Assembly: GCA_946554525.1 (NCBI GenBank)
Contig: CAMNSE010000004.1
Coordinates: 8,177-72,176, forward strand
Length of the DNA: 64,000 bases
Direction: 5' to 3'
DNA from: an uncultured Mycoplasma sp.
Lineage (GTDB): Bacteria > Bacillota_I > Bacilli_A > RF39 > UBA660
Made by a program: the position numbers and the translations under genes. Shown here piece after piece: positions 4,335 through 64,000 of this stretch. Numbering within the stretch: the stretch's first letter is position 1; each line of letters starts with the position of its first letter. The notes beneath the pieces were generated by a model. The model was not told where the DNA came from. It did no database searches and was given only the letters and a program-made list of their open reading frames with translations.

Positions 4335-6908
4335 ATGAAAAGAGTAATTTTAGTAGATGGAAATAACTTAATGTTTCGTAGTTATTTTGCAACAGCCTAT
4401 TCAGGAAATATTATGCGAAATTCTAAAGGATTTCCAACTAATGCCTTATATGGTTTTGTTAGTATGATGAATAAGATAATTAATGAAGAACATCCCGAAT
4501 ATATTGCTGTAGCGTTTGATATTGGCAAAAATTTTCGTAAACAAAAATATGATTTCTATAAAGAAGGAAGACATGAAACACCAGAAGATTTAAAAAAGCA
4601 AATGCCTATTGCTCGTAAAATATTAGAAGCTATGGGCATAAAATATTTAGAACTAGAGCCATATGAAGCAGATGACATTATAGGTACTTTAGCAAAATGG
4701 GCGGATGAAAATCCAGAATATGATGCTACTATTATTTCGAGTGACCGTGATCTATTACAATTAATTAGTCCAGTTGTAGACGTTAAGCTTTTAAAACAAA
4801 AAGATTATATTAAGTATAATCCTGAAACATTTAAAGAAGACTGGGGAATTGAACCCATTAAAATTATTGATTTAAAAGCCTTAGCGGGTGATGCGTCTGA
4901 CAATATTCCTGGAGTAAGAGGAATTGGGGATAAAACGGCTTTAAAATTACTACAAGAATATGGTTCTTTAGAAAAAATCTACGAAAATATTGATTCTATC
5001 AAAGGTAAAACAAAAGAAAAATTAGAAATTGACCGTGAAAATGCTTTCATGAGTAAAGAAATAGCTACCATTTTTATAGAAGTGCCATTATCTATAAGTT
5101 TTGAAGACATTCACTATGATGGTATAAATGAAGATGCACTCATAAGCATCTATGAAGATTTAGAATTTTATTCTTTATTAAAAAACTTTGGTCAAAAAAA
5201 TATTGTAAAAGATAGTATTGATTATAAAGAAATAAATGATATAAATGATCTTAAATTAGATAACGAAGTAAGTGTTTTTGTAGAATTTAGCGAAGAAAAT
5301 TATCATAAAGCAAGTATTTTAGGAATTGGAGTTAGCGATAAAGAAAATAATTACTTTATAGCTCCTAAATATTTTAAAGAAGTTATTTCTATTTTAAAAG
5401 ATAAAACAGTTTACACATATCATGGAAAAGCTTTAATTTCTGTACTTAAGAGGGAAGGCTTAGAATTAAATATAAATTATGATTTAATTATTGCTTCTTA
5501 CTTAGTTGATTCTTTTACTAAAGATGATATCGCCTTTTTAATGCATCCTAAAAATATTAATGTAGATTTTTATGAAGAAGCAAAGAAAAATGGCTTTAAT
5601 GATAAGGACAAATTGAAAAAGGATATTGTTTTAAAATCAAGGTTTATTTTTGATACTCGTGATGATTATATTAAAAGATTAAAAATGGAAGAGATGTATG
5701 ATTTATTTTCTAATATTGAAATGCCTTTAATTTCAGTTTTAGCTGATATGGAATATGTTGGTGTAAAAATTGATTCTGATGTTTTAGATGAAATAAAAGA
5801 AGAAGCTATAGTTAAATTAGATATTTTATCAAAAGAAATTTATAATATGGCTGGATGCGAATTTAACATTGCAAGCCCAAAGCAATTAGGGGAAGTATTG
5901 TTTGGCAGGCTTGGAATTGCAGAAGGCAAAAAAACCCAAAAGGGATATAAAACAGATGCTAGTACATTACAAAAATTAAGAGATAGACATCCAATTGTGA
6001 GTAAAATTTTAGAATATCGTAATTTTAGTAAAATATTATCTACTTATACTGTGAGCTTGGAGAATGCTAAATTTCCCGATGGGAAAATTCATACTATTTT
6101 TAAGCAGACTTTAACTAGAACAGGAAGACTTTCTAGTGTAGAGCCTAATTTACAAAATATTCCTATTCGTGGAGAGGAAGGTAGAAAAGTAAGACGTGCT
6201 TTTTTACCTAGCAATGATTTATTTTTAAGCATAGATTATTCGCAAATAGAATTACGAATCCTTGCTCATATATCAGGTTCTGAAGAACTAATTGAAGCCT
6301 TTAATAACAATCAAGATATACACACCAAAGTAGCTGCAGATATTTATGGGGTAGATGAGGCAGATGTTACAAAATTAATGCGTAGTACTGCTAAAGCTGT
6401 AATATTTGGAATTGTATATGGTATAAGTGGATTTGGATTAGGTGAAAATTTAAATATTAATCCAAAAGAAGCGTCACAATTCATTAAAAAATATTATGAA
6501 TTATATCCTGGAGTAAAAAATTATATGGATAATATTGTGAAAGAAGCTAAGACATATGGAAGTGTAAGAACGCTTTTTAATCGTAAAAGGACAATTGAAG
6601 AATTATCCAATCAAAATTATATGGTAAGAAGTAGTGGCGAGAGAATCGCTCTTAATACGCCAATTCAAGGAACTAGTGCTGATATTATTAAAAAAGCAAT
6701 GGTATTAGTTTTTGAAGAATTTAAACGTCAAAATATTAAAAGTAAAATAGTATTACAAATACATGATGAACTCGTTATTGATACATTAAGTGATGAAGAA
6801 GAAATAGTAACAAAAATTGTTAAAGATGTAATGGAAAATGTAATAAAACTTTCAGTACCGCTTAGAGTTGGTATTGCAAAAGGAAAAGACCTTTATGAAG
6901 CAAAATAA
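4335..6908 (+). CDS. polA: DNA polymerase I
   Basis: The 5'-nuclease N-terminus (ILVDGNNLMFRSYFA), the polymerase motifs DYSQIELRILAH and QIHDELV, and the length all fit PolA. ATG 4335 is preferred over GTG 4326 because AGGTGA lies 5 nt upstream. Confidence 0.95.
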   Translation: MKRVILVDGNNLMFRSYFATAYSGNIMRNSKGFPTNALYGFVSMMNKIINEEHPEYIAVAFDIGKNFRKQKYDFYKEGRHETPEDLKKQMPIARKILEAMGIKYLELEPYEADDIIGTLAKWADENPEYDATIISSDRDLLQLISPVVDVKLLKQKDYIKYNPETFKEDWGIEPIKIIDLKALAGDASDNIPGVRGIGDKTALKLLQEYGSLEKIYENIDSIKGKTKEKLEIDRENAFMSKEIATIFIEVPLSISFEDIHYDGINEDALISIYEDLEFYSLLKNFGQKNIVKDSIDYKEINDINDLKLDNEVSVFVEFSEENYHKASILGIGVSDKENNYFIAPKYFKEVISILKDKTVYTYHGKALISVLKREGLELNINYDLIIASYLVDSFTKDDIAFLMHPKNINVDFYEEAKKNGFNDKDKLKKDIVLKSRFIFDTRDDYIKRLKMEEMYDLFSNIEMPLISVLADMEYVGVKIDSDVLDEIKEEAIVKLDILSKEIYNMAGCEFNIASPKQLGEVLFGRLGIAEGKKTQKGYKTDASTLQKLRDRHPIVSKILEYRNFSKILSTYTVSLENAKFPDGKIHTIFKQTLTRTGRLSSVEPNLQNIPIRGEEGRKVRRAFLPSNDLFLSIDYSQIELRILAHISGSEELIEAFNNNQDIHTKVAADIYGVDEADVTKLMRSTAKAVIFGIVYGISGFGLGENLNINPKEASQFIKKYYELYPGVKNYMDNIVKEAKTYGSVRTLFNRKRTIEELSNQNYMVRSSGERIALNTPIQGTSADIIKKAMVLVFEEFKRQNIKSKIVLQIHDELVIDTLSDEEEIVTKIVKDVMENVIKLSVPLRVGIAKGKDLYEAK

Positions 6909-6919
6909 AAGGAGGTATT

Positions 6920-7840
6920 ATGAATTTTGATGATATTATACAAAAGTGGAATTATAGTAAAGAATTTGGAGCATTTCTAAAAGAAATATATAAAGAATTT
7001 GTTTTACATTTTGGTGAAGATAAAGAGCCAATTATTTTTGAAGCTTTTAAAGATACAGAAATTGTATTATGCGATAATATATATGATTTATTGATTGAAA
7101 GAGGATTGCTAGAACAATCAGAAGGAATAGTTAAAGATGGAGATTATAGGCGAGCTAGTGGTGTTTATTCAGCAAATGAAGAGATTGCTTTTGATGAGGA
7201 AACAAAAACTTATAAAATAATAGGGATTAAAAGATTAGTAGGCCTTCGTGATTTTGATATTAATGTAGTTTCTTGTAAAGCAACAGCAGCTCATGAACTT
7301 GGACATATGATTAAAAATTACTTTGAAGGAGCTAAAATTATAGGAGATATACTTATTACTAGATTTGGTTTAATGGTATCAACTTATAAACTATCCTATG
7401 AAAATGGCAAAGTAAATAAAACATTAATAAAAGAAGAAGCAGTAGGATTAGAAGAAGGGTTAAATTCATTACTAGAAATGATAATAGTAAGAAAATTATA
7501 TGATGCAGATTATAAAGTTCGGGGATATGGGACAGTATGTGCAATGGCTAGTGTTTTATCTAACTTAGAAAGTATTAGAAATCTTATTTTAAATAGTCAA
7601 ATTTGTGATAACAGAGATTTTGCTAATGCTTTGGGTGATAATTATGAAAAAATAGCAAAATTACTTGATGAAGCTTATCTTCTTGATCTTAAGATGTATG
7701 CAGACATATTTGCATCTGATGAAGTTAAAAAAGAAAATACTAGAGAACATCAAAGAGTAATAGAGGAATTTAAAACAATAATAAGGCCTTTATATTATAA
7801 AGAAAGAGGTGAAATTAGTGCCAGAGATAGCAGAAGTTGA
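6920..7840 (+). CDS. hypothetical protein with an HExxH motif (putative zinc metallopeptidase)
   Basis: Has a GGAGG RBS. Contains AAHELGHMIKN. I recognise no other family feature. It overlaps the mutM start by about 23 nt. Confidence 0.45.
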   Translation: MNFDDIIQKWNYSKEFGAFLKEIYKEFVLHFGEDKEPIIFEAFKDTEIVLCDNIYDLLIERGLLEQSEGIVKDGDYRRASGVYSANEEIAFDEETKTYKIIGIKRLVGLRDFDINVVSCKATAAHELGHMIKNYFEGAKIIGDILITRFGLMVSTYKLSYENGKVNKTLIKEEAVGLEEGLNSLLEMIIVRKLYDADYKVRGYGTVCAMASVLSNLESIRNLILNSQICDNRDFANALGDNYEKIAKLLDEAYLLDLKMYADIFASDEVKKENTREHQRVIEEFKTIIRPLYYKERGEISARDSRS

Positions 7841-9917: not shown

Positions 9918-9946
9918 TTGACTTCGGGGGGGGGGTATGCTATTAT
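9918..9946 (+). promoter_or_regulatory. sigma-A-type promoter with a G10 tract in the spacer (17-nt spacer)
   Basis: TTGACT (9918-9923), TC, G10 (9926-9935), TATGC, TATTAT (9941-9946). The TGC before TATTAT makes it an extended -10. The cassette is conserved at 21069 and 62782 with different G counts. Confidence 0.7.
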
Positions 9947-9974: not shown

Positions 9975-11345
9975 ATGAAGTTTGAGACATTAAGAAAAGA
10001 TAATCGTAAGAAATGGATAGTAGGAGTTATAGCAATACTGGCTATAACATCGGTAGTATTCTTTGTATCAACTAGAGCAAATTATAAAACAGAACAAAGA
10101 TTAAATTTAATAAATACGAAAGTTAATTGGAATCCAACAGATTTAGAAATAGTGTCTATTAAACTAAAAGCTGGAGATAACTATACAGATACTAATACAG
10201 TACCAACAAGTGGATATACATTAAGTGATGAATCATATTGTGAAGTAAATGGAAGTAGAGATACAAGTATTCCTATGGAGTACAAAGATGGTAAAGTGAG
10301 TATTGGAGTAAGCAACAAAGGAACGAAGTGCTATTTAATATTTAATACTAAAACTCCTGTAGCAGCCGAAATAATACTTGCTAATAAAACTGTAGAAGAA
10401 AGAACAGATTTCAGTTCAGCATTAACAGAAAATACAACTGGAAAGATATATAAAACACAAGATGATGATGGAGATACATACTATTTTGCTGGGTCTGTAG
10501 ATAATAACTGGGTACAATTTGGAGCAGAAAATGGAAGCTCAATATATTGGCGAATAATAAGAATAAATGGTGATGGAACAATAAGATTAATCTATAATGG
10601 AACAAGTATGGTACAAACAGGAACATCAACTCAAATAAATGAAACAACATATAAGTTCTCAGCTACAAATGCTACAGGAACTCCAAGTTTTACTTATGCT
10701 AAAGATAATGCCTATGTAGGATATATGCGTGGAACAGCAGGGTCAAGCACATATGATGCAACACATACAAATACAATTAGTAGTTATGCAAAGCAAATTG
10801 TAGATGAATGGTATAGTACAAATCTAAATAAGACAGGAATCAAAGAGAAGATATCAACAAATACCGGATTTTGTGGAGATAGAACAAGCAATACAAATAG
10901 TAGTGCAGAACCTAATGGAACCGGAGGATACGGAACTACAAAAACATATTACGGAGCATTTTACAGATTATATACAAATAAAGCACCAAGCTTAAGATGC
11001 ACAAATGCAAATGATTTATATACAGTAAGTAGTGCAAATAAAGGAAATAAAGCCTTAACATATCCAGTAGCTCTAATAACAGCGGATGAGGTAGCATATG
11101 CCGGAGGAACAAAGGCAAGCGGTAATAGTTTATATTATTTAAATACAAATCAATATTATTGGACAATGTCTCCTTCTACCTTTAATGGGAGTTATGCGAT
11201 CATGTTTTCTGTGCACTTGGATGGTATACTAGACTCCCGCAACGTGTACCTTGCAAGCGGCCTTCGTCCAGTTATTAACTTAAAAGCTGATACTAAACTT
11301 ATAGGAGATGGGACAACTACCAGTCCATATACTGTAGAAGTATAG
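9975..11345 (+). CDS. membrane-anchored surface protein, poly-G-promoter family member 1
   Basis: N-terminal basic stretch plus a transmembrane segment (KKWIVGVIAILAITSVVFFVS). The extracellular part shares YWRIIRINGDGTIRLIYNG, FCGDR, ITADEVAYAGG, YYWTMSPS and LRPVINLK...GDGT...PY with the gene at 62835. The C-terminal domain architecture is shared with 21125-22651. Confidence 0.8.
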   Translation: MKFETLRKDNRKKWIVGVIAILAITSVVFFVSTRANYKTEQRLNLINTKVNWNPTDLEIVSIKLKAGDNYTDTNTVPTSGYTLSDESYCEVNGSRDTSIPMEYKDGKVSIGVSNKGTKCYLIFNTKTPVAAEIILANKTVEERTDFSSALTENTTGKIYKTQDDDGDTYYFAGSVDNNWVQFGAENGSSIYWRIIRINGDGTIRLIYNGTSMVQTGTSTQINETTYKFSATNATGTPSFTYAKDNAYVGYMRGTAGSSTYDATHTNTISSYAKQIVDEWYSTNLNKTGIKEKISTNTGFCGDRTSNTNSSAEPNGTGGYGTTKTYYGAFYRLYTNKAPSLRCTNANDLYTVSSANKGNKALTYPVALITADEVAYAGGTKASGNSLYYLNTNQYYWTMSPSTFNGSYAIMFSVHLDGILDSRNVYLASGLRPVINLKADTKLIGDGTTTSPYTVEV

Positions 11346-19373: not shown

Positions 19374-21017
19374 ATGAAAAAGAACTCATTTTTAGAAGGT
19401 TCTATTATAGCAACAATATCCCTTATTGTAGTAAGACTTTTAGGGTTATTATATGTTATTCCATTTTATGCTATTGTTGGTGCAACAGGGGCAGCATTAT
19501 ATGCTTATGCTTATAATATTTATGGTTTATTTTTGGATATATCTGCATCAGGTGTTCCTAGTGCTGTTGCTAAACTAATTAATGAGTTTAATACTTTAAA
19601 TAAACAAGAGGCAAAGATAAGAACTTTTATGATTGGCAAAAAGATATTAGGCTTTTTTGCAATAGCAGCCTTTATAGTATTATTTGTATTTGCTCCTCAG
19701 ATTTCCAAATTAATTATTCATGACATGACTGGAGGAAATACGATAGGGGATGTTACATTTGTACTTCGGTCTGTATCATTTGCACTTATTTTATTTCCAT
19801 TTTTAGGAATGAATCGAGGTTTTTTTCAAGGACATAATGTTATATCTGTTGCATCATTCTCTCAAGTAATTGAACAGGCAACAAGAATATTAGTAGTAAT
19901 ATTAGGTAGTTTTTTAGTTTTAAAAGTATTTGGTATGGATCTAAAATATGCTATTGGTATTGCCGTATTTGGAGCATTCTTAGGAGAACTTATGGCAGAT
20001 ATTTATGTTCATCATAAGCTTAAGAAACATAAAGAACAATTTTATCTCGATTATGAATTTAAGAAAAAGGATAATATTACTAACAATCAAATTATTAGAA
20101 GAATAATAAAGTATGCAATTCCTATTGTTATTATTACAGTTGCTACAACTATTTATAATAATATTGATATGATTTTAGTTTTAAGAACAATGAACAATTT
20201 AGGATTTGAAGCATATATATCTGAATTTGTAGCAACAGGTATCTCGACATGGGGAGCAAAAATTAGTGTTATAGTTACAACAATTAGTATGGGAATTTCT
20301 TCAAGTTTAGGTCCTCATTTAGTAGAGAGTTTTACTTTAAAAAACTATAAAGATGTAAATCATAAGCTTAATAAAGCTATGGAAATAGTTTTATTTATTA
20401 CAATACCAATGTGTATAGGCATATCTTTATTAAGTGACTCTATATGGACAGTATTTTATGGCCATAGTAGTATTGGAACTACATTACTTGCTATGACAAT
20501 ATTTTCTCCATTATTTGGAAATATTTATTCTATTGCAAATAATACATTACAAAGTATGAATAGATTTAAAATGGTTTATTTAAGTACAATATCTGGGTTT
20601 TTATTAAATACTTTACTTGATATTCCACTTATGCATTTATTTTACCATTTTAATCTTCCTGCTTATTGGGGCGCAATGGTAGCGACATTTTTAGGTTTTA
20701 CATTATCATATACCATAACGCTAGTATATTTAAAGAAAGCTTATCATTTTAATTATAGTGATATTGGAAAAACTTTAGGAAAAATTATTATTCCATTAGT
20801 ACCTATGATATTAGTAGTAGTTTTAATTAAATGGTTAATTCCAGTTAATTATGCATCAAGGATGTTTTGCATTTTATTTATAGCTATTTCTGCTACTGTA
20901 GGAGCGGCTATTTATTTCTTTATCTCATATAAAATGGGAATAATAGATAGTATCTTTGGTAAAGATGTCTTATCAAGAATCAAAAATAAATTTATAAAAC
21001 GCAAAAAAGAAGCTTAA
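19374..21017 (+). CDS. MOP-superfamily polysaccharide/lipid II flippase (MurJ/SpoVB/YtgP-like)
   Basis: About 14 predicted transmembrane segments and 547 aa. The N-terminus FLEGSIIATISLIVVRLLGLLYVIPF is typical of the YtgP/SpoVB group. Confidence 0.7.
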   Translation: MKKNSFLEGSIIATISLIVVRLLGLLYVIPFYAIVGATGAALYAYAYNIYGLFLDISASGVPSAVAKLINEFNTLNKQEAKIRTFMIGKKILGFFAIAAFIVLFVFAPQISKLIIHDMTGGNTIGDVTFVLRSVSFALILFPFLGMNRGFFQGHNVISVASFSQVIEQATRILVVILGSFLVLKVFGMDLKYAIGIAVFGAFLGELMADIYVHHKLKKHKEQFYLDYEFKKKDNITNNQIIRRIIKYAIPIVIITVATTIYNNIDMILVLRTMNNLGFEAYISEFVATGISTWGAKISVIVTTISMGISSSLGPHLVESFTLKNYKDVNHKLNKAMEIVLFITIPMCIGISLLSDSIWTVFYGHSSIGTTLLAMTIFSPLFGNIYSIANNTLQSMNRFKMVYLSTISGFLLNTLLDIPLMHLFYHFNLPAYWGAMVATFLGFTLSYTITLVYLKKAYHFNYSDIGKTLGKIIIPLVPMILVVVLIKWLIPVNYASRMFCILFIAISATVGAAIYFFISYKMGIIDSIFGKDVLSRIKNKFIKRKKEA

Positions 21018-21068
21018 TGAACTTCTTTTTTCTATGTAAAACATCTTGTAAATGAAATGCCCAAAATA

Positions 21069-21094
21069 TTGACTTCGGGGGGGTATGCTATTAT
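21069..21094 (+). promoter_or_regulatory. poly-G promoter cassette, copy 2 (G7, 14-nt spacer)
   Basis: TTGACT (21069-21074), TC, G7 (21077-21083), TATGC, TATTAT (21089-21094). Confidence 0.65.
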
Positions 21095-21124
21095 TTACTT
21101 ATAAAATAGTAAGGAGATAATAGT

Positions 21125-22651
21125 ATGGAGAAGAAAAAGAATATAACACTATTAGTAATAGGATTACTTGCAGTAGTAGCATTCTCATTTGGAATAAGTT
21201 ATGCCTACTTTGTAAGTAGAATTACTAAAGAAGGAGAAGGAAGCAATGTAGGTGGTTCAACTGCAACAAAACAAGATACAGTAGTAAGTACTACAGGATC
21301 TATTGGATTTACCGACACCAATATCTATCCAGGACATAAGAATATATCAAAGATTGTAGTAACAGCAACAGGAGATAGTCACGTAATATATAACTTAGTA
21401 TGGAATGGGACTAATACACTAAATACAACCATAAATTATAAGGTATATAAAGCAACAACAGAAAAGAATCCAAGCATTAAATGCGCAAAACATGAAGAAG
21501 GAACAATAAGAAAAGAGTTGTATGAGGAATGTACAGAGAACTTAACTGGATTAGGAGAGGTAATTTCTGAAGGAATGATAGAATCAACTGAAGCAAGTAC
21601 AAAAGTAAAACTAATAAGGAATGAAGAGATAGATGCGAGCAACGTAGGAGCAAAAGTATATTACTATATAGTACTAGAATATCCAAATAAAGAAGATAGC
21701 CAAAACATAGATATGAATGGTTCTTTTACAGGTAATATCAATGTAGAATTATTAGAAGAGAAAGAATATTGTACAAATGATACATGTAAATATTTAATAG
21801 CAAAGAATGAAATGGTACATGAGACATTTACAAAAGAAGATGGAACAGTAGTAGATACAGGATATAGATATGAAGGAGCAAACCCAAATAATTATGTAAG
21901 ATTCAATAATGAATTATGGAGAATAATCGGAGTATTTGAAACAGTAAATGCTGATACAAATGAAACAGAGAGTTTAGTCAAACTAATAAGAAATGAATCT
22001 ATAGGAAATATTAGATGGGATACATATGGATATTATGGATCAAATGATTGGACAGAATCAGATATCAAAACAATATTAAATGGACAATACTTAAATGGAG
22101 AAGATATAAACTATAATTATAGAAATCCTAATCATGGAGATGGCAATATTAATCCGACAGTATCAATAGCAGGTGTAAGCATCAAAGATACAGCAAGAGA
22201 AATGATTGAAAATGCAAAATGGAATATAGGAGGAGCTTCAAGTTCTTCTTCAATTGTATCAGCATTTTATATTGAAGAAAGAGGAACAACTGGAGCTAAA
22301 TCAAATCCAACCATAGCGACATGGAATGGATATATAGGGCTTATGTATCCAAGCGATTATGGATACGCAGTAGATAGCACATCATGTCCAAGAACAGCTT
22401 CGCTATGGAAATATTCCTATACTGGTTCGTGTAAAACAAATAACTGGCTATTAAATAATAACAATCAATGGATGTTAACGCCAAGTGCAGATGGTGAAAG
22501 TTCACAATATTATGTAAGCTATGACTATAACATTAATTCGCTTTATCCCGGATTAGAAAATAGCATTCGCCCAACTATATATCTGAAATCTAATGTGCAA
22601 ATAGTTGATGGAGATGGTTCACAAGAACATCCATATGAATTAACTATTTAA
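21125..22651 (+). CDS. secreted/anchored surface protein, poly-G-promoter family member 2
   Basis: AAGGAGA RBS. The N-terminal signal/anchor ends in GISYAYF. The C-terminal domain (NYVRFNNELWRIIGVF..., WTESDIKTILNGQYL, QWMLTPS, IRPTIYLK...GDGS..HPY) is homologous in layout to members 1 and 3. Confidence 0.8.
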   Translation: MEKKKNITLLVIGLLAVVAFSFGISYAYFVSRITKEGEGSNVGGSTATKQDTVVSTTGSIGFTDTNIYPGHKNISKIVVTATGDSHVIYNLVWNGTNTLNTTINYKVYKATTEKNPSIKCAKHEEGTIRKELYEECTENLTGLGEVISEGMIESTEASTKVKLIRNEEIDASNVGAKVYYYIVLEYPNKEDSQNIDMNGSFTGNINVELLEEKEYCTNDTCKYLIAKNEMVHETFTKEDGTVVDTGYRYEGANPNNYVRFNNELWRIIGVFETVNADTNETESLVKLIRNESIGNIRWDTYGYYGSNDWTESDIKTILNGQYLNGEDINYNYRNPNHGDGNINPTVSIAGVSIKDTAREMIENAKWNIGGASSSSSIVSAFYIEERGTTGAKSNPTIATWNGYIGLMYPSDYGYAVDSTSCPRTASLWKYSYTGSCKTNNWLLNNNNQWMLTPSADGESSQYYVSYDYNINSLYPGLENSIRPTIYLKSNVQIVDGDGSQEHPYELTI

Positions 22652-22728
22652 TAATTTTTTATTAAATCATAAAAATATGAGTAGAATTATACTCATATTT
22701 TTTGTATAATGAATATAGGGTGACTTAT

Positions 22729-28367: not shown

Positions 28368-30353
28368 ATGAAAAAAATTGCATTATTAATGTTATTTGCC
28401 TTTTTATTTATTTTAGGTATAGCTTCTGTAGATGCTGCAAGTTATAATTATAATGTTAAATATGTATCAGGAGATTGTAAAAGTAGTACTGGGTGTAAAT
28501 ACAATTTACTCTTTAATTTGAAAGATTTGCCAAGCACACAAGTAAATCATTTAGAAGGAGAATTAATTTTAAGAGGATATGAAATTATTTCTACTAAGCT
28601 GGAAAATGATTTTGTGGGTACTTTTGATAAGAATACTGCCAAGTATAATTTAACATCTAAAAAGACTTATACTAAGAGTGATGGTGAAGTGGTATTTGCA
28701 TCAATAATGGCAAGAAAGATAATAGATAGTGATGATTGTAGAGTTGAAATTAAACCCTCCGTTACCGAAAAAGTAAATATTAATCAGTTTACAATGAATA
28801 AAGATGCTTATAAAGATGGCGTTAAGATTTCAAATATAAAAGTTGGAGAAGAATTTGAATATCGAATTAAAGTGACGGGTTTATATAATTATTTAGAAAC
28901 TGATGTTGTAAATATCAAAGATGTAATTCCAGAAGAATTAGAAGTAATAGATAATGGTGGAGCAACACTTACGAGTTCTAATACATATACGTGGTCTTTA
29001 GGAACATTTAAAGCTGGAACAGAGACAAAGACTATTTCCATAAAAGTAAGACTTAAGGATACTTTAAAAAGAAGTCTTTATAATAAATCAACTTTAACTG
29101 TAGAGGGGCAAGATCCAATTGAGGCTGGTAATACTATAAATATTGTGTATTCAGATATTCAAGTTAATAAAGAAGCAAGTAAAAATAAAATTGCTCCAGG
29201 ATCAGTTTTTGATTACAAAATTACTGTTAAAAATATGGGGAATGCTGTTTCTGAAAATATCGTTTTAAAAGATACTTTAGATAATAACTTAACGTTAATA
29301 AGTTCAGACGCTCGTTATACTAAAAATAACAATGAATTTTCTTTTGACATTGGAAAAATTGAAGCTGGCAAAAGTGTTACAATTACATTGCATGTTAAAG
29401 AAAATAATACTTTAAGTAAAGGAGAAATTGTAAATACTGCCATTGCCGTGGAAGAAGGGAAAAAAACTATCGAAGCTACTGCTGTTGTGACAGTGGAAAA
29501 AGAGGAATCATCAGGCGCTTTAGATAAACCTAGCATCAGCATTAAAAAAAGTAGTAATGAAAAAGAAGTTCAGGTTGGAAAAGAGTTTAAGTATACAATA
29601 GAGATTACAAATAATAATTCTCTAAACCTTAAAAATGTTATTTTAACTGATCATATTGATGATAACTTAGAAATCATTGATGCAAGTGGAGCTACTTATG
29701 AAAATGGTGTGTTAACATGGCAATTTGACTTAGATAGCAAAAAGGATAAAGCTTTTACGATAAGAGTTAAAGCAAAAGATGATACAAAGCTTAGGGAAAT
29801 TAAAAATCAAGCAAAAGTTTATTATAATGATTTAGAAGAAGAAAGTAATGAGGTTGTAATAATTGTAATAGAAGGGGACAAAAAAGAATCTCTAGATAAA
29901 CCTAGTATCAGCATTAAAAAAAGTAGTAATGAAAAAGAAGTTCAGGCTGGAAAAGAGTTTAAGTATACTATAGAGATTATAAATAATAATTCTCTAAACC
30001 TTAAAAATGTTATTGTAACTGATCATATTGATGATAACTTAGAAATCATTGATGCAAGTGGAGCTACTTATGAAAATGGTGTGTTAACATGGCAATTTGA
30101 CTTAGATGGTAAAAAGGATAAAACTTTTACGATAAGAGTTAAAGTAAAAGATGATACAAAGCTTGGAAAAATCAAGAATCGTGCAAAAGTATTAAATGAT
30201 GATTTTGAAGAAGAAAGCAATGAAGTTGTAATAACTGTTGTTGAAGTAGAAAATCCTAAAACGGGTATGATTAGTGGAGGAATTATTCTAGTTTTAGTAG
30301 GGGTTTTAGTTATATTAAAAATAAAAAATAAAAATAAATTACTAAAAATTTAA
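28368..30353 (+). CDS. cell-wall-anchored surface protein with DUF11-type repeat domains and an NPKTG sorting signal
   Basis: Signal peptide MKKIALLMLFAFLFILGIASVDA. Repeated domains of the form F-x-Y-x-I-x-V-x-N-x-G...L-x-D-x-L. The C-terminus is NPKTG, a hydrophobic segment, then KIKNKNK. Confidence 0.85.
   Translation: MKKIALLMLFAFLFILGIASVDAASYNYNVKYVSGDCKSSTGCKYNLLFNLKDLPSTQVNHLEGELILRGYEIISTKLENDFVGTFDKNTAKYNLTSKKTYTKSDGEVVFASIMARKIIDSDDCRVEIKPSVTEKVNINQFTMNKDAYKDGVKISNIKVGEEFEYRIKVTGLYNYLETDVVNIKDVIPEELEVIDNGGATLTSSNTYTWSLGTFKAGTETKTISIKVRLKDTLKRSLYNKSTLTVEGQDPIEAGNTINIVYSDIQVNKEASKNKIAPGSVFDYKITVKNMGNAVSENIVLKDTLDNNLTLISSDARYTKNNNEFSFDIGKIEAGKSVTITLHVKENNTLSKGEIVNTAIAVEEGKKTIEATAVVTVEKEESSGALDKPSISIKKSSNEKEVQVGKEFKYTIEITNNNSLNLKNVILTDHIDDNLEIIDASGATYENGVLTWQFDLDSKKDKAFTIRVKAKDDTKLREIKNQAKVYYNDLEEESNEVVIIVIEGDKKESLDKPSISIKKSSNEKEVQAGKEFKYTIEIINNNSLNLKNVIVTDHIDDNLEIIDASGATYENGVLTWQFDLDGKKDKTFTIRVKVKDDTKLGKIKNRAKVLNDDFEEESNEVVITVVEVENPKTGMISGGIILVLVGVLVILKIKNKNKLLKI
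29520..30245 (+). repeat. tandem duplication, 2 x 372 bp (124 aa), inside the surface-protein gene
   Basis: Unit 1 starts at 29520 (TTAGATAAACCTAGCATCAGC) and unit 2 at 29892 (CTAGATAAACCTAGTATCAGC). Only scattered substitutions are seen over most of the unit. The second copy diverges near the sorting signal. Confidence 0.9.
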
Positions 30354-44800: not shown

Positions 44801-44874
44801 TGGTGCTGAATGACTGAATTGAACAGTCCTCTGATGCTTACCATGCATCTGTTTTACCACTAAACTAAATCAGC
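44801..44874 (-). tRNA. tRNA-Thr (anticodon GGT)
   Basis: Hand-folded from the reverse complement as GCTGATT-TA-GTTT-AGTGGTA-AAAC-A-GATGC-ATGGTAA-GCATC-AGAG-GACTG-TTCAATT-CAGTC-ATTCAGC-A-CCA. There is one T:T mismatch in the acceptor stem and a 4-nt variable loop. Minus-strand promoter TTGAAA-17-TATAAT lies just upstream (about 44884-44912). Confidence 0.7.
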
Positions 44875-44953
44875 ATATTTAAATTATATCAAAGACGTAG
44901 CGAACTTTCAATAAATATGTTATAATTCATTTTAGAAATGAGATGTATAATTT

Positions 44954-45655
44954 ATGAATGTACCAAATCATGTAGCAATTATTATGGATGGAAATGGTAG
45001 ATGGGCTATAAATCATGGTAAAAGAAGAAGTGAAGGACATTTAGAAGGCAGTAAAACTTTAGAAAAAATTGCTCTTCATGCTAAAAAAATGGGAGTAAAA
45101 TTTTTAAGTGTTTATGCATTTTCAACAGATAATTTTAAGCGAAGCAAAGAAGAAGTGGAATATTTAATGGATTTAATTATTAAATATTTTAATGTGAAAT
45201 TTAAGACACTTGCTAAAAATGATATTAAAGTAGTTATTTCTGGTAGAAGAACAGGACTTAGGAGTGATGTCTTAGAATCAATTGAAAACATTGAAGAAAA
45301 AACCAAAAAGAATAAATCTTGTACTTTGAATATTTGTCTTAATTATGGAGGACAAGAAGAAATTATTGATGGAGCTATTCGTTTGGCTGAAGATATTAAA
45401 AATGGGTTAGATATCACTGATTTTAAAAGAGAAGATTTTTACAAATATTTATATCAAGATTTACCGCCAATTGATTTAATGATTCGAACTGGTGGTGAGC
45501 AAAGAGTTAGTAATTTTATGTTGTATCAAATTAGTTATAGCGAGTTTTACTTTACAAATACTTTGTTTCCAGATTTTGATAAGTCTGAATTTAATAAAGC
45601 GTTATTTATGTTTGAAAATAGAGATCGTCGTTTTGGAAATGTTAAAAATTCTTAA
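44954..45655 (+). CDS. uppS: undecaprenyl-diphosphate synthase
   Basis: Has HVAIIMDGNGRWA, FSTDNFKRS and RTGGEQRVSNFMLYQ. Confidence 0.95.
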   Translation: MNVPNHVAIIMDGNGRWAINHGKRRSEGHLEGSKTLEKIALHAKKMGVKFLSVYAFSTDNFKRSKEEVEYLMDLIIKYFNVKFKTLAKNDIKVVISGRRTGLRSDVLESIENIEEKTKKNKSCTLNICLNYGGQEEIIDGAIRLAEDIKNGLDITDFKREDFYKYLYQDLPPIDLMIRTGGEQRVSNFMLYQISYSEFYFTNTLFPDFDKSEFNKALFMFENRDRRFGNVKNS

Positions 45656-45722
45656 AATTAAAACTTTTCCTTTTCATGTATTTGTAGTATAATAGGAGTA
45701 GCATTTTTTAGGAGGACCATTT

Positions 45723-47993
45723 ATGAAATTTAAGATATCACCAAAAGACTTTTTAATATTTTGCTTATACTGTATATTATTATTATATTTATGTGCAATA
45801 GCTGTACTTAATTTTTCATCATTTTTAAATGATGGTACATTTTATGGGTTATTACCATTTAAAGCTTTCACTAAAGACTATATTGTGATAACTTTATTTA
45901 TGTTTTTTGTAGCTTTGATTCTTATATTTACAAGTGTTTCTTCCTATGTATTTAATAAAGAAAAAGGAAAAGGCTTTGGAATAAAACTTGGAGAAAAATC
46001 TGAGAGTGGTTATGCTAGATGGTCAACAGAAAAAGAAATTAAAGCCGATAGTGGGGTAACAAAAGTTGATCCAAAAGCAGATAAATTAAATGCTGCAGGA
46101 ATCCCTTTAATTAATAATGGAAAAGAAATATGGGTTGATAATGGAGAATACCATAATTTAGTTATAGGATCTACAGGTTCTGGAAAAACTCAAACAGTTG
46201 TTAAACCGATGGTAAATTTACTTGCTAAAAAGGGCGAATCTATGATTATTACAGACCCTAAAGGTGAAATTTATAAATATGCGGCTACAGCTTTAAAAGA
46301 ACGTGGATATAAGATTATTGTTTTAAATTTCCGTGAGCCAAATAAAGGCAATGCTTGGAATCCTCTTACACTCCCATATCGTTATTATAAAGATGGAAAT
46401 ACTGATAAATCTACTGAATTATTGGATGACGTGGCATTAAATATTTTATACGATCAAACTAAAAAGAGTGGAGACTCTGATTTCTGGGAAAAAAGTGCGG
46501 CCGATTATTTTTCTGGTTTAGCGTTAGGATTGTTTTATGATGCTAAAGAAAAAGAAGTGAATTTAAATAGTATTAACTTTATGAGTACAATTGGTGAAGA
46601 GAGATATGCAACTAGTAATTATATTAAAGAGTATTTCAACTTAAAAGGAGCAGAATCAGCACCTTATATATTTGCGTCAAATACAATCAATGCCCCAAAT
46701 GATACTAAAGGTGGTATTTTATCAACATTTAGACAAAAAATTCGTTTGTTTTCATCTCGTGAATCATTAAGTGAAATGCTTGCTTATAGTGATTTTAAAA
46801 TGGAAGATATAGGTCGTGAAAAAACGGCAGTATTTATGATTATTCATGATGAGAAAAAAACATATCATGCTCTTATGACAATATTTATTAAACAATGCTA
46901 TGAAACATTGATAGATGTTGCTCAAGAAAATGGAGGGAAACTGCCATTTAGAACTAATTTTATCTTAGATGAATTTGCCAATATGCCTCCACTAAAAGAT
47001 GTAGATTCAATGGTTAGTGCCGCTCGTTCTAGAGATATTAGATTTACATTTATTATTCAAAACTTTGCGCAATTAAATGATGTATATGGTAAAGAAGTAG
47101 CGGAAATTATTAAAGGTAACTGTGGAAACTTAGTGTACTTAATTAGTACAGAACTAGCGGCCTTAGAAGAAATTTCTAAGATGTGTGGAGAAGTAAAATC
47201 AAAAGAAAAAGATAAAACTGCCTCTACGCCACTTGTTACAATATCCGATTTACAAAAGTTAAAATTATTTCAAGCGATTATTATTCGTCTTCGTATGAAT
47301 CCATTTAAAACAAAATTAGAACCGGATTTTAAAATGGATTGGGGAATGAATAGAGAAGAAACAGCATATCCAGAAAGAGAAATTAAAAATATTGAATTAT
47401 TTGATTTAAAGAAATATGTAACTGAAGAAAAAAGAAAACAAATGATGGCTAATTTAGAAAATAATGAAAATAAAGAGCCAAGTCCATTTGCAAATAATTT
47501 TGGAAATCCATTTATGCCTGGTGGCAATAATATGGGAATGCCTAGTGGTATGGGCGCATCTCAACCATTAAATGGTTCTACTCCAATGGGCGGAATGACT
47601 CCAAATTCATCTTCACCATTTAGTAGTAATCCCATGTTTGATAAACCTATGAGCTCATTATCTGATATGGATATAGACGCTATGATGAAAGATATTGATA
47701 GAAGATTAAAAGAGCTTGATGAAGAAGAAGCAAAACAAAAAGCTGAAATGGAGAAAGCTAAAAAGATTGAAGAACCAAAAGAAAGAGAACTTCCTAGTAT
47801 AAGAGAGGCAGAGGTAACAGAATCTAACACTACTGAAAAAGACCAAATTAATTTAGAAAAAACAGAAGAAGGTTTAGAAGAATTATTGGATGATGAAACT
47901 ACTCCTAAAATTAATGTTGATGCTGATAGCATTATTGTAAATGATAATGTTATAACAGATGATGAATTTTTTGACGATTTTTTCGGTGAATAA
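45723..47993 (+). CDS. VirD4/TraG/TraD-family type IV coupling-protein-like ATPase with a low-complexity C-terminal tail
   Basis: Two N-terminal transmembrane segments, Walker A GSTGSGKT, ITDPKGEIY and FILDEFANMPPL (the T4CP LDEF motif). The tail is P/G/M/N-rich, followed by a highly acidic end. Confidence 0.75.
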   Translation: MKFKISPKDFLIFCLYCILLLYLCAIAVLNFSSFLNDGTFYGLLPFKAFTKDYIVITLFMFFVALILIFTSVSSYVFNKEKGKGFGIKLGEKSESGYARWSTEKEIKADSGVTKVDPKADKLNAAGIPLINNGKEIWVDNGEYHNLVIGSTGSGKTQTVVKPMVNLLAKKGESMIITDPKGEIYKYAATALKERGYKIIVLNFREPNKGNAWNPLTLPYRYYKDGNTDKSTELLDDVALNILYDQTKKSGDSDFWEKSAADYFSGLALGLFYDAKEKEVNLNSINFMSTIGEERYATSNYIKEYFNLKGAESAPYIFASNTINAPNDTKGGILSTFRQKIRLFSSRESLSEMLAYSDFKMEDIGREKTAVFMIIHDEKKTYHALMTIFIKQCYETLIDVAQENGGKLPFRTNFILDEFANMPPLKDVDSMVSAARSRDIRFTFIIQNFAQLNDVYGKEVAEIIKGNCGNLVYLISTELAALEEISKMCGEVKSKEKDKTASTPLVTISDLQKLKLFQAIIIRLRMNPFKTKLEPDFKMDWGMNREETAYPEREIKNIELFDLKKYVTEEKRKQMMANLENNENKEPSPFANNFGNPFMPGGNNMGMPSGMGASQPLNGSTPMGGMTPNSSSPFSSNPMFDKPMSSLSDMDIDAMMKDIDRRLKELDEEEAKQKAEMEKAKKIEEPKERELPSIREAEVTESNTTEKDQINLEKTEEGLEELLDDETTPKINVDADSIIVNDNVITDDEFFDDFFGE

Positions 47994-60200: not shown

Positions 60201-62279
60201 CTATCTCGCGAAGAAAAGCTAGAAGGCGATACTCTTAATAAAAAATCTTTTGCAATTCTTCATGAAACAATATTAAATGGATTTGATGCTGTAAAAGAAA
60301 TTATTAAAGAAGAACTTGAAATTAAACTTAAAGAAGATCATGAGAATAGTATTAAAGAAATAGAAAATAAACTAAAAGAAGCTTCTTTAGAAGAAAAGAA
60401 AGAATTAGAAGAAAATCTAAAAGTATTAAAAGATACAGATCCTCTTAGTGATATTGAAAAAAAGATTAAGAAATCTTTAGGTGGTATTATTGGAGGAGGA
60501 TTTGATGTAATTTATTTAATTGCACAAAAATTAGTTAAGAAAAGTAATGATGATGGCTTTCTAGTAGGATCCCGTGGTTCTGTTGGATCAAGTTTTGTTG
60601 CAACTATGATGGGTATTACTGAGGTTAATTCACTCCCTCCACATTATCGTTGCAAAAAATGTAAATGTAGTATTTTTGAAGATGAAAATGGTAATGCTTT
60701 AGGAGCAACTTATAAAAGTGGATTTGATCTTCCAGATAAGATGTGTCCAAATTGTAATATTGCTATGGTAAAAGATGGACAAGATATGCCATTTGCAACC
60801 TTCCTTGGATTTAATGCAGATAAAGTACCAGATATAGACCTTAATTTCTCAGATTTAAATCAAGCTGCAGCACATGATTATACGAAAGTATTATTTGGTA
60901 TAGATAATGTATATAGAGCGGGAACTATCGGTACAGTAGCTGAAAAAACTGCTTTTGGTTTTGTAAGAGGTTATGCAGAACAAAAGGGTATAATTATGAG
61001 TAATGCTGAGGTAGAGAGGCTTGCTATGGGATGTACAGGAGTTAAACGTACAACAGGTCAGCATCCAGGGGGAATAGTTGTTATTCCAGGATATATGGAT
61101 GTATTTGATTTTACACCTTTCCAATATCCAGCAGAAGATATTGATGCTGCATGGAGAACAACGCATTTTGATTATCATGCAATTGATGAAGATGTCTTAA
61201 AGCTAGATATTCTAGGACATACAGATCCTACACAGCTAAGAATGATTCAAGATATATCCGGAATAGATGTTACAACCGTTCCGTTAGATGATAAAGATAC
61301 AATGGGCATATTTTTATCACCAGAACCTCTTGGGGTTACAAAAGACCAAATTATGAACGAAACTGGTACTCTTGGAGTTCCTGAGTTTGGAACACCATTT
61401 ACCATTGGAATGCTAACCGATACTAAGCCTAAAACATTTGCCGAATTAATTAAAATATCAGGTCTTTCTCATGGTACTGATGTTTGGCTTGGAAATGCTC
61501 AAGAATTAATTAAGAATAATGTAGTTCCATTTAGTGATGTTATTGGTTGTCGTGATGATATCATGGTTTACTTAATGTATAAAGGCCTAAAACCAATTAA
61601 GGCATTTAAAATTATGGAATTTGTTCGTAAAGGAAAAGCATCAAAAGAGCCTGAAGCTTGGGCAGAACATAAAAAAACAATGGAAGAAGCAGGAATAGAG
61701 TCGTGGTTTATAGAGTCATGTGGTAAAATTAAGTACATGTTTCCTAAAGCCCATGCTGCAGCTTATGTAATGAGTGCATTTAGAATTGCTTATTTTAAAG
61801 TCCATTATCCAGAGATTTATTATGCAACATATTTTTCAACAAGATTTGATGATTTCGATTTAGAAACGATGGTAAAGGGATATGACGCTATTCGATCTCG
61901 TATGAATGAAATTATTGAAAAAGGCTATGATGCTACTAATAAAGAAGCGAGTGTACTTGAAACACTAAAACTTGCTTTAGAAGCTACAGCTAGAGGATAT
62001 AAGTTTGGTAATATTGATATTGAGAAGAGTGATAGTAAAAACTTTATTATTGCAGATGATAAAAAAACGCTTATCTGTCCATTTAGAACACTTGATGGAC
62101 TAGGAGATAGTGTTGCTACTAAAATTATTGAAGAGCGAAATATAAAACCATTTTATAGTATAGAAGACTTCCAAAATAGAGGAAGAGTAAATGCTACAAC
62201 AGTAGATAAATTAAGAGCACTTGGAGTATTTGGGGATTTACCAGAAACTAGTCAGTTAAGTTTATTTGACTTTGTTTAG
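57246..62279 (+). CDS. polC: DNA polymerase III PolC type (1677 aa, expanded)
   Basis: PHP VELHAHTMMSMMDG, exonuclease YIVFDTETTGL...HNAKFDIGF...HRADYDA, and SRGSVGSSFVATMMGITEVNSLPPHY with CxxC...CxxC. Also PDIDLNF and the KAHAAAYV finger region. Confidence 0.97.
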   Translation: MHDINSFLESIGVTDETHAFKDILIDKVKLNKKTQNFSVYLVSKNVLPIKDANILLNKKYKIHDNYPCEIYLNYENIKDDDVKIYVREIMNELVLDKPSLVSLLDNEAIIDDDIIIFEVISETEEEIIKKEQANILSSLEKYGFHGYFITTRMNEEKRKEVVSELESAQAPVEYKEQIQEFIPGSVIKGKAITKEASPIGSITSVSKSVTIEGYIESISYLERDNINIITLSINDNDKSIMAKIFEKEKEKYLLIKNALKVDSWYRLNGSVDLDSYSKCLALSVRNLEDIEDREIIISTSEDPNIVLGEHVDGEVCRIDNIVGAKENVIIEAFVFGMDLLEKDTINIMTLKVSDKTSSILAKVFKKNKREFEAIKKGLKSAVKKKEWYRFHGNIEFDNYSHELVFQIRNLEHIPSKDEKVVDDALVKRVELHAHTMMSMMDGLIPNDEKDPRNLCQFAYDFGHKAIAVTDHNVLQAYPNMFHAVNSLNKGKNPEEHFKMIYGTELNVVNDDIDFIHNLREYELLNGEYIVFDTETTGLYLGSDQMIEIGAVKIKDKQVIDRFDEFIDPHRPLPEKIKTLTCITDEMLAGHDDEKSVTKRFLDWVGDLPMVAHNAKFDIGFINAACEKYNLGEFNNTVLDTMSMARFLHPEWPNHKLTTLARRYKIEWDEEAHHRADYDAEGTAYAFIKMCEELDSQNIETTTKLVNSVDINELVKFSFPFHLCCLVKNKTGLKNLFKIISYANTTYLFKNSEPKLPRGELKKYREGLLIGSGCVNGEIFEEAKTKDDEELANLMNFYDYIEVQPLSAIKHLLQLESSGFKTMNELEEHIKKIIRVARDAGKIVVATSDAHYLRPEDKIYRDIIIGQKSNGKLHPLNKRGVDQPDMHIRTTKEMLDEFAFLGSDLAYEIVVTNSNKIADMIEEVEVIIQTGGVPFSPKIDKSVETVTNLVYTKAKDWYGDPLPFNIEERISKELYGDAVLESIRTKLSREEKLEGDTLNKKSFAILHETILNGFDAVKEIIKEELEIKLKEDHENSIKEIENKLKEASLEEKKELEENLKVLKDTDPLSDIEKKIKKSLGGIIGGGFDVIYLIAQKLVKKSNDDGFLVGSRGSVGSSFVATMMGITEVNSLPPHYRCKKCKCSIFEDENGNALGATYKSGFDLPDKMCPNCNIAMVKDGQDMPFATFLGFNADKVPDIDLNFSDLNQAAAHDYTKVLFGIDNVYRAGTIGTVAEKTAFGFVRGYAEQKGIIMSNAEVERLAMGCTGVKRTTGQHPGGIVVIPGYMDVFDFTPFQYPAEDIDAAWRTTHFDYHAIDEDVLKLDILGHTDPTQLRMIQDISGIDVTTVPLDDKDTMGIFLSPEPLGVTKDQIMNETGTLGVPEFGTPFTIGMLTDTKPKTFAELIKISGLSHGTDVWLGNAQELIKNNVVPFSDVIGCRDDIMVYLMYKGLKPIKAFKIMEFVRKGKASKEPEAWAEHKKTMEEAGIESWFIESCGKIKYMFPKAHAAAYVMSAFRIAYFKVHYPEIYYATYFSTRFDDFDLETMVKGYDAIRSRMNEIIEKGYDATNKEASVLETLKLALEATARGYKFGNIDIEKSDSKNFIIADDKKTLICPFRTLDGLGDSVATKIIEERNIKPFYSIEDFQNRGRVNATTVDKLRALGVFGDLPETSQLSLFDFV

Positions 62280-62781: not shown

Positions 62782-62809
62782 TTGACTCCGGGGGGGGGTA
62801 TGCTATTAT
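62782..62809 (+). promoter_or_regulatory. poly-G promoter cassette, copy 3 (G9, 16-nt spacer)
   Basis: TTGACT (62782-62787), CC, G9 (62790-62798), TATGC, TATTAT (62804-62809). Confidence 0.65.
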
Positions 62810-62834: not shown

Positions 62835-64000
62835 ATGGAGTTCGAAACAATAAAAAAAGATAACCGTAAGAAATATGTTATTGGAGTTATAGTAATACTT
62901 GCTGTATCTTCAGTAGTGTTCTTTGTATCAACTAGAGCAAATTATAAAGATGAACAACGATTAAATTTAATAAATACGAGAGTTAATTATAGTCCAAGTG
63001 ACTTAGATGTAATGGCTATAAAGGTGCAAAATTCAAGTGGAGGATATGATACGGTAGATACAGTGCCAACTAGCGGATACACACTAAATAGCGAATCATA
63101 TTGTGAAGTAAATGGAAGCAAAGATGCAAGTATACCAATAGAATACAAAGATGGAAGAGTTACGATACCAGTAGAATCTAAAGGCACAAAATGTTATTTA
63201 TTTTTTGATGAAAAACCTATATCAATAGCTGATATTTTAGATGGATTAACCAAAGAAAAAAGAACCGATTTTAGTTCAGTATTAACGAAAAATACAACTG
63301 GAAAAATATATACTGCTGAAGATGATGATGGTACAAGTTATTATTATGCTGGGGCAGTAGATAATAACTGGGTACAATTTGGAACAGAAAATGGAAGTCC
63401 AATATATTGGAGAATAATAAGAATAAATGGCGATGGAACAATAAGATTAATTTATAATGGAACAAGTATGGTCCAAACAGGAACATCAACTCAGATAAAT
63501 GGAACAGCATATACGTTCTCGCATAAAGATGCAGTATCAGTGGAAACCTATGCTAATGATAATGCATATGTGGGATATATGTATGGAACAGCAGATTCTA
63601 GTACATATGAAGCAACCCATACGAATACAAATAGTAGTTATGTAAAACAAATGGTAGATGAATGGTATAATACAAATCTAAATAAAACTGGCATAAAAGA
63701 GAAGATATCAACGAATGCTGGCTTTTGTGGAGATAGAAGCTTACAAAGTGGAACAGGAGTAGGAACAACTCAAACTTATTATAAAGCTTATAATAGGCTA
63801 TCTACAAATAAAGTCCCAAGCTTAAAATGTACAAATGAAAATGACTTATATACAGTAAGTAGTGCAAATAAAGGAAATAAAGCATTAACATATCCAGTAG
63901 GATTAATAACAGCAGATGAAGTAGCATATGCTGGAGGAATAATTACATATAATACTAATTATTCATATTATTTATATACAAACGAATATTATTGGACAAT
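62835..64000 (+). CDS. membrane-anchored surface protein, poly-G-promoter family member 3 (3' end outside the window)
   Basis: Absent from the ORF track because it has no stop in the window. Translation from ATG 62835 gives MEFETIKKDNRKKYVIGVIVILAVSSVVFFVSTRANYKDEQRLNLINTRVNYSPSDL... It stays open to 64000 and is colinear with 9975-11345, with long identical nucleotide stretches such as GGAACAAGTATGGT.CAAACAGGAACATCAACTCA. Confidence 0.85.
   Translation, partial: MEFETIKKDNRKKYVIGVIVILAVSSVVFFVSTRANYKDEQRLNLINTRVNYSPSDLDVMAIKVQNSSGGYDTVDTVPTSGYTLNSESYCEVNGSKDASIPIEYKDGRVTIPVESKGTKCYLFFDEKPISIADILDGLTKEKRTDFSSVLTKNTTGKIYTAEDDDGTSYYYAGAVDNNWVQFGTENGSPIYWRIIRINGDGTIRLIYNGTSMVQTGTSTQINGTAYTFSHKDAVSVETYANDNAYVGYMYGTADSSTYEATHTNTNSSYVKQMVDEWYNTNLNKTGIKEKISTNAGFCGDRSLQSGTGVGTTQTYYKAYNRLSTNKVPSLKCTNENDLYTVSSANKGNKALTYPVGLITADEVAYAGGIITYNTNYSYYLYTNEYYWT

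Follow-up and report, generated by a model that had tools for sequence, protein, structure and literature searches.

A poly-G tract of variable length in the promoter spacer of a DUF6273-related gene from an uncultured Bacilli lineage: a probable phase-variable promoter

A gene for a protein of 508 amino acids (aa) is located at positions 21125-22651 on the plus strand of a 64,000-nucleotide (nt) stretch of contig CAMNSE010000004.1, assigned to an uncultured member of the Bacilli (RF39 lineage); this whole stretch is referred to below as the window. The gene is preceded by a promoter, copy 2, in which a run of seven G residues (poly-G) separates the -35 element from the -10 element. Does the resulting short spacer mark a damaged promoter, or one position of a switch that moves with the length of the G run? 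Analysis of this promoter, of its two sister copies in the window and of the same loci in other samples points to the second answer. The locus is probably a phase-variable "volume-control" promoter, switched by a simple-sequence repeat (SSR) in its spacer through slipped-strand mispairing. This reading is favored over its rivals because the tract adjoins a conserved -35 element, because long G runs were found only in promoter spacers, and because the polymorphism is confined to the tracts. The poly-G run is probably a stochastic regulator of expression for a secreted binding protein, as judged from sequence.

The poly-G promoters and their tract lengths

Reading of the copy-2 promoter on the plus strand revealed a -35 hexamer TTGACT (21069-21074), which matches TTGACA at five of six positions, followed by the dinucleotide TC (21075-21076), the G7 tract (21077-21083), the pentamer TATGC (21084-21088), and the -10 hexamer TATTAT (21089-21094; 5/6 match). 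The tract lies inside a 14-nt spacer (21075-21088). This distance, read directly between the -35 and -10 hexamers, is the one given in an earlier note made from the sequence of this DNA alone. The ribosome-binding site (RBS) AAGGAGA (21111-21117) is separated by 7 nt from the start codon (ATG, 21125). The open reading frame (ORF) is intact for 508 codons; that note had described this RBS and the intact frame as well. The transcript is predicted to start near 21101, some 7 nt past the -10 hexamer.

Two further promoters of the same design were found on the plus strand. Copy 1 (9918-9946), upstream of the gene at 9975-11345, is composed of TTGACT (9918-9923), TC, G10 (9926-9935), TATGC, and TATTAT and has a spacer of 17 nt. 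Copy 3 (62782-62809), upstream of the gene at 62835-64000, is composed of TTGACT (62782-62787), CC, G9 (62790-62798), TATGC, and TATTAT and has a spacer of 16 nt. A homopolymer between recognizable -35 and -10 elements, the arrangement of porA- and tp0126-type promoters, is present in all three copies. The -35 hexamer and the TATGCTATTAT block are exactly identical across them, which extends to copy 3 an identity that had been noticed for copies 1 and 2. As an exact 11-mer, TATGCTATTAT occurs three times in the window, each time at one of the poly-G promoters. Upstream of the -35 hexamer the three copies are unrelated in sequence, so that conservation is confined to the promoter core, and the core blocks are identical despite the remote relationship of the copy-2 gene to the genes of copies 1 and 3. 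The G+C content of the window is 28%, and runs of at least seven G residues are found solely in the three promoter tracts. These runs give eight overlapping G 7-mer matches against 0.35 expected, a number reached by none of 100 shuffled sequences (0/100). A homopolymer census of the 64-kb window detected no further G or C run longer than six.

In Gram-positive bacteria, the extended -10 motif of sigma-A promoters, also called the "-16 region," reads TRTGnTATAAT, with TG at -15/-14 (TRTG at -18 to -15). Positions 21084-21094 (TATG-C-TATTAT) contain TRTG, one nucleotide n, and a TATAAT-like hexamer, and we take this block to be a Gram-positive extended -10 element of the TRTGn type. Conservation of the TATGC-TATTAT block would be explained by its being part of this element. 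The earlier note had counted TATGC as plain spacer; its count of 14 nt was right, yet the pentamer fits an extended -10 element.

The tract lengths were compared with those in Logan contigs, which are Illumina based, from 14 other sequencing runs; these contigs were found via neighboring housekeeping proteins. The set comprised 26 distinct contigs, with about 88 kb aligned in total. The contigs were 99.9 to 100% identical to the window, except for one (L028) with a divergent block in polC. Outside this block, all aligned sequence contained just three substitutions, one of which adjoins the copy-2 tract. Each of the 10 G tracts covered from end to end differed in length from the window, versus none of 132 spanned A or T runs of at least seven residues. 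Length variation at the tracts is far above that of the flanks among otherwise identical genomes, as in known cases of phase variation. The tracts are the most variable positions of an otherwise near-clonal genome, and the copy-2 tract is hypermutable.

At copy 2, where the window has G7, four contigs (L015, L016, L017, and L018) have G9, and a fifth (L005) has G9 and lacks the following T. G7 is the minority state at this locus among the samples compared. At copy 1, where the window has G10, two contigs (L019 and L021) have G9, and a third (L020) ends inside the tract after nine G residues. At copy 3, where the window has G9, the tract has seven G residues in L028 and L030 and eight in L034. 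The Logan contigs disagree among themselves at this copy; therefore, the variation is not tied to the window assembly. Nor is the combination of states constant across samples: SRR30517270 carries G9 at copy 2 with G7 at copy 3, and the window has G7 with G9. The earlier note had argued for slippage from the difference between copies 1 and 2. Such a comparison of paralogous copies is weak evidence; the relevant evidence is the comparison of the same locus across samples, in which G9 and G7 stand between otherwise identical flanks. This comparison supports a slippage hotspot at copy 2, and copies 1 and 3 vary too.

The exceptional contig at copy 2, L005 (SRR31801358), reads G9 and then ATGC instead of TATGC (positions 10037-10049, corresponding to 21077-21088 of the window), a net gain of 1 nt. 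The first T of TRTG is thereby lost; the change may be genuine or an artifact of the k-mer path at the tract edge.

The ends of the contigs were also inspected at the tracts. At copy 3, 9 of 10 contigs end within the tract or soon after it, and 7 of the 10 stop inside it after seven or eight G residues. The ends of L028 and L030 lie exactly 30 nt from the start of the copy-3 tract. The Logan graph presumably uses k = 31, and contig ends at the tracts would fit branching of such a graph. They give a hint of mixed tract lengths within samples, with technical causes also possible. Three G9 contigs run through the copy-2 tract and about 100 nt further.

Action of the tract and rival explanations

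The -35 and -10 elements of a promoter are used best at a distance of 17 ± 1 nt. In the proposed mechanism, slipped-strand mispairing in replication would add or remove G residues between TTGACT and the extended -10 element. Tract length would set the spacing (17 nt for G10, 16 nt for G9, 15 nt for G8, and 14 nt for G7), and the spacing would alter how well the housekeeping sigma factor uses both promoter elements. The observed range of 7 to 10 G residues, from the optimum downwards, suits a graded volume control in which G7 should be the weakest state. At 14 nt, copy 2 of the window would probably represent the lowest-expression state of a secreted or anchored DUF6273 protein of 508 aa. The three promoters would switch independently, so that cells or populations might display different combinations of surface proteins. 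The tract states suggest such an alternation: in the window, copy 2 would be low and copy 3 on, and in SRR30517270 the reverse would apply. We infer tract-dependent expression, reversible switching, and surface exposure of the proteins from the sequences compared here.

Several points weigh against this reading. The ON and OFF labels of the tract lengths come only from the 17 ± 1 nt rule, and a TRTGn extended -10 element can function with a poor or misplaced -35 element, so that G7 may be leaky. Read-through from the upstream gene (19374-21017), which ends in a weak hairpin, could express the copy-2 gene whatever the tract length. The G7 state of the window comes from a single assembly, G homopolymers are prone to sequencing and assembly error, and the contig ends inside tracts could be technical. 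Elsewhere, G9 is dominant at copies 1 and 2, and it could be a stable preferred length with rare deviations. Because an extended -10 element is present, a mis-spaced -35 element may reduce transcription without abolishing it, and G7 may correspond to a "low" rather than an "off" promoter state. The OFF state predicted in the earlier note is plausible, though possibly leaky, as an assignment made solely from the spacing rule.

The transcription unit of the copy-2 gene bears on the possibility of read-through. The gene upstream (19374-21017, plus strand) is codirectional and encodes a MurJ-like flippase (Pfam Polysacc_synt). At its 3' end is a weak terminator-like hairpin (21003-21031, plus strand), whose A/U-rich stem has 10 bp (-7.1 kcal/mol; z -2.25). 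Downstream of the copy-2 gene is a strong terminator (22671-22702, plus strand) of two hairpins, jointly -17 kcal/mol (z -5.9), the second of which is a 13-bp stem succeeded by a U run; the gene therefore closes its own transcription unit. A consensus promoter scan upstream of 21125 found no other plausible sigma-70-type promoter. The earlier note had named transcription from another promoter as a finding that would speak against silencing, and the scan yielded a single candidate, TTTACT-16-GATAAT, which was rejected: it ends 4 nt before the ATG, and its transcript would have no RBS. An Rfam scan of the window detected two tRNAs only and no known RNA element in the copy-2 leader. In the absence of another promoter and of a leader RNA element, dependence of the copy-2 gene on the poly-G promoter is therefore most likely, with some read-through possible. 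The view that the gene is silenced rather than decayed had been put forward before, and a regulated, nondecayed gene is a reasonable reading given the intact ORF, the strong terminator, and the lack of another plausible promoter in the scan.

Two further candidates were rejected at this locus. Reiterative transcription at the G run was discarded because the run lies upstream of the -10 element and is hence untranscribed from the poly-G promoter. A terminator-like hairpin on the minus strand, in which CCC at 21060-21062 pairs with the G tract, is absent at copies 1 and 3 and was attributed to chance.

The tract might be mutable and still not act via spacing. Expression would then be driven by the extended -10 element alone or by read-through past the weak upstream terminator, and tract length would be near-neutral or would act by a G/C-tract-binding regulator or by local DNA structure. 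The TRTGnTATTAT motif is intact in every copy, and a simple scan of upstream regions revealed that TGn-type -10 elements are frequent upstream of window genes and that several apparent housekeeping promoters combine such an element with a poor -35 element. Moreover, the poly-G tract of Treponema pallidum tprL affects its promoter without a change in spacing (PMC7864442). However, a near-consensus TTGACT is positioned directly 5' of the tract in the three copies and in three other metagenome-assembled genomes (MAGs), which would be needless if the -35 element were unused. Runs of G7 to G10 at 28% G+C should decay unless selected, and the observed spacers cluster at 14 to 17 nt, at and just under the optimum. 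For these reasons an action of the tract other than by spacing is considered unlikely.

It is less probable still that a G homopolymer was miscalled or collapsed, the window G7 being an artifact and G9 the true state. G tracts are known trouble spots, and at copy 2 the seven G residues are found only in the window assembly, compared with nine in five other samples (four with plain G9 and the one minus the following T). The many contig breaks in or near tracts and the odd T-loss variant of L005 would also fit such an error. On the other hand, the window assembly agrees with the contigs at 132 of 132 A or T runs of at least seven residues and shows almost no substitutions, so that it is not generally indel prone, and a consensus shift of 2 nt exceeds typical homopolymer noise. 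The mutual disagreement of the Logan contigs at copy 3 (G7, G7, and G8) also speaks against a fault of the window, and the three G9 tracts assembled unbroken at copy 2 indicate that G9 alone does not break assemblies. A recent one-way silencing of the copy-2 gene at the start of decay would agree with a 14-nt spacer that is nonfunctional by the consensus rule and with a 508-aa product recorded exactly only from the source assembly, but it is very improbable given the intact ORF with a strong RBS and its own terminator, the G9 tract at the same locus in other samples with otherwise identical flanks, and a difference confined to a repeat, the most reversible kind of mutation.

Products of the genes

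The products of the three genes gave no direct match in Pfam or NCBIfam. The copy-1 product (9975-11345, plus strand) has 456 aa and shows homology to the copy-2 family along its entire length (hhalign profile comparison, probability 99.9%, E value 2e-35). The third paralogue (62835-64000, plus strand) runs off the window and is 70% identical to copy 1. Its full-length product is probably P0123, a protein of 445 aa encoded on the same 87-kb source contig and 68% identical to copy 1.

For the copy-1 and the copy-2 protein alike, metagenomes contain thousands of relatives, many of which are annotated with PF19789 (DUF6273) and some with PF12389. The copy-2 protein itself matched no Pfam family at E ≤ 0.01, PF19789 included. 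Among 40 aligned copy-2 homologues, 10 matched PF19789 and 10 matched PF12389 (Peptidase_M73; best E value, 3.2e-6). The N terminus of the copy-2 protein reads ...GISYAYFVS and includes an AYF motif. This motif and the PF12389 matches of the homologues would fit a camelysin/TasA protein with a SipW-type signal peptide; the window protein itself had no such match, and the fold search with its full model was nonsignificant.

The AlphaFold model of the full copy-2 protein (predicted local distance difference test [pLDDT], 77.6) began with a hydrophobic helix at residues 2-21, presumably an anchor or signal segment, followed by a beta-sandwich (residues ~46-210) and a globular C-terminal domain (residues ~228-508). 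Comparison of the full-length model with PDB structures revealed no significant match, and a profile search of PDB sequences returned nothing. The C-terminal 281 residues, modeled alone, reached a pLDDT of 91.8. Among solved structures, this model matched one, that of the Thomasclavelia ramosa IgA peptidase (9qa6; E value, 1.4e-6; template modeling [TM] score, 0.51). In BFVD, it matched many phage DUF6273, receptor-binding, and tail-fiber proteins, with E values down to 3.6e-7 for proteins named "DUF6273 domain-containing." Together, the PF19789 matches of the homologues and the model connect the copy-2 protein to bona fide DUF6273 domains by homology or shared fold.

The N-terminal domain of 9qa6 is a DUF6273 domain, described as being of unknown function (PMC12402451). 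In phages, DUF6273 is a C-type-lectin-like binding module of receptor-binding "tentaclins" and is diversified by a diversity-generating retroelement (DGR) (PMC10743442). The likeness of the phage tentaclins (PF19789) and of the T. ramosa peptidase to the copy-2 protein lies in the fold of its C-terminal 281 residues. They differ from it in two respects: the phage proteins vary in sequence by DGR, whereas the variation here would be in expression via a promoter repeat, and the copy-2 protein has no peptidase domain, unlike the T. ramosa enzyme. The products of the poly-G-driven genes are most likely exported, ligand-binding surface proteins, as predicted from the modeled fold and the N terminus.

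Exact look-ups of the copy-2 protein, of its identical entry P0001, and of a 69% identical homologue, P0002, found none of them on record. The exact 508-aa product is recorded only from the source assembly, and neighboring proteins are present in 6 to 13 contigs. Position 21185, which is 61 nt inside the copy-2 gene, is the shared end point of three independent contigs (L005, L015, and L017), and position 11041, within the 3' end of the copy-1 gene, is the shared starting point of four (L005 to L008). The genes behind the poly-G promoters may have strain-variable bodies, or further paralogues may share repeats with them.

Known systems, distribution, and genome context

Repeat-driven phase variation is textbook knowledge for Neisseria, Haemophilus, Campylobacter, Treponema, and Mycoplasma, and work on phase variation in gut commensals has centered on invertible promoters. 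To our knowledge, the repeat-driven kind is hardly documented in uncultured, walled Firmicutes. For uncultured Bacilli or RF39, a literature search turned up no report of SSR phase variation, nor was there one for DUF6273 proteins. The mechanism itself is already known from porA and tp0126; the host lineage, uncultured Bacilli, is the one described here. In Mycoplasma hyorhinis, the vlp genes have a poly-A run in the promoter spacer, and the Vmm and Vmc systems of the mycoides cluster have TA-repeat promoters. These systems share with the present one a Bacilli-derived lineage and several paralogous surface genes, each with its own spacer repeat and combinatorial ON and OFF states. They differ in the repeat (poly-A or TA versus poly-G) and in their hosts: the vlp, Vmm, and Vmc products are lipoproteins of wall-less Mollicutes, whereas the genome studied here encodes PBP2, FtsA, and FtsZ and uses genetic code 11.

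In the Neisseria meningitidis porA promoter, a poly-G run lies between the -35 and -10 elements and the spacing decides expression (van der Ende et al. 1995, as cited in PMC7864442). As far as that citing article describes it, the likeness to the present promoters consists of a G homopolymer in the spacer, slippage that shifts the -35/-10 distance around a 17-nt optimum, and a surface protein whose expression is graded or absent. The porA system comprises one locus in a Gram-negative pathogen; here, at least three paralogous loci occur in an uncultured, low-G+C Bacilli lineage, the Gram-positive extended -10 element (TRTGn) might leave the low state leaky, and the system is known from its sequence alone. 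In T. pallidum, tp0126 also has a poly-G run between the -35 and -10 elements and is expressed best at optimal spacing (Giacani et al.; PMC7864442), and the paralogous surface-protein genes tprE, tprG, tprJ, and tprL are under poly-G promoters (PMC7864442). Runs of 7 to 11 G residues in promoters of a paralogous surface-protein family, with lengths that vary within and between isolates, resemble the tracts described here. T. pallidum is a spirochete, its targets are outer membrane proteins unrelated to the DUF6273 proteins of the window, and in tprL the tract overlaps the -10 element and works without spacing.

The three loci could be part of a genome-wide "phasome," in which a lineage of the class Bacilli, nearly clonal in the samples compared, changes its sets of DUF6273 surface proteins through independently slipping poly-G promoters; this wider proposal is tentative, with the odds slightly against it. 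If true, its purpose would be evasion of host antibody or phage, or altered attachment, and walled, probably commensal Bacilli would thereby gain their first described SSR promoter contingency system. Confirmation would show that a lineage known only from metagenomes carries contingency loci and would mark DUF6273 proteins as surface molecules under fluctuating selection. Assemblies break at poly-G tracts, and the consensus tract length of a MAG should not be taken for a fixed genotype.

The occurrence of such promoters in other genomes was examined with a promoter-pattern scan over one genome per species. A poly-G run in the same spacer position was found in three other low-G+C MAGs: G7 with a 14-nt spacer in one labeled Clostridium sp. 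(L001), G10 with a 17-nt spacer in CAYOWI010000002.1 (L003, positions 1063-1091), and G9 with a 19-nt spacer in one labeled uncultured Bacilli from a Hadza sample (L004). Two of the three downstream genes encode a signal or membrane segment, that of CAYOWI010000002.1 having an N-terminal ...GYAYFS signal, and the third is cut off after 13 residues. A fourth match (L002), a high-G+C tRNA promoter with G5, was rejected as chance type. None of the species-representative genomes scanned carried the three copies of the window, and scans of JGI metagenomes and IMG/VR found nothing beyond an unrelated G6 site that precedes a different gene. Homologues at 44 to 50% identity have ordinary promoters, one of which consists of TTGACT, a 17-nt spacer, and TATACT, without a G run. 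These ordinary promoters rule out the poly-G run as an attribute of the protein family at large and mark the tract as derived and lineage specific.

The CAYOWI010000002.1 contig has a G+C content of 27.5% and carries a Firmicutes-style poly-G promoter and a gene with an AYF-type signal peptide, yet it is filed under a Muribaculaceae MAG; it is probably misbinned. About 5.6 kb from the poly-G promoter of L004, a gene at 5706-7520 (minus strand) encodes a protein of 604 aa with an N-terminal prepilin-type methylation motif (PF07963; E value, 2.5e-4).

The window is chromosomal Firmicutes DNA that encodes PolC, DnaE, FtsA, FtsZ, PBP2, ValS, and PriA. The closest named relatives of ValS (about 78 to 81% identity) are from MAGs labeled Bacilli bacterium or Firmicutes bacterium. 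A protein of 661 aa encoded at 28368-30353 has four DUF11 repeats and a DUF7507 domain and is likely another cell surface protein; its candidate promoter combines TRTGnTATTAT with TTTACT at 18 nt and has no G tract. Comparison of the 3' part of polC (61136-61601) with L028 (SRR27999955) revealed a mosaic stretch of about 470 nt that holds 105 substitutions and four small indels, the rest being identical. The stretch has the appearance of a tract acquired by recombination from a diverged strain. A tRNA-Thr gene (44801-44874, minus strand) adjoins a gene for a TraG/VirD4-type type IV coupling protein (45723-47993), and the region from 44801 to 47993 may be an integrated conjugative element.

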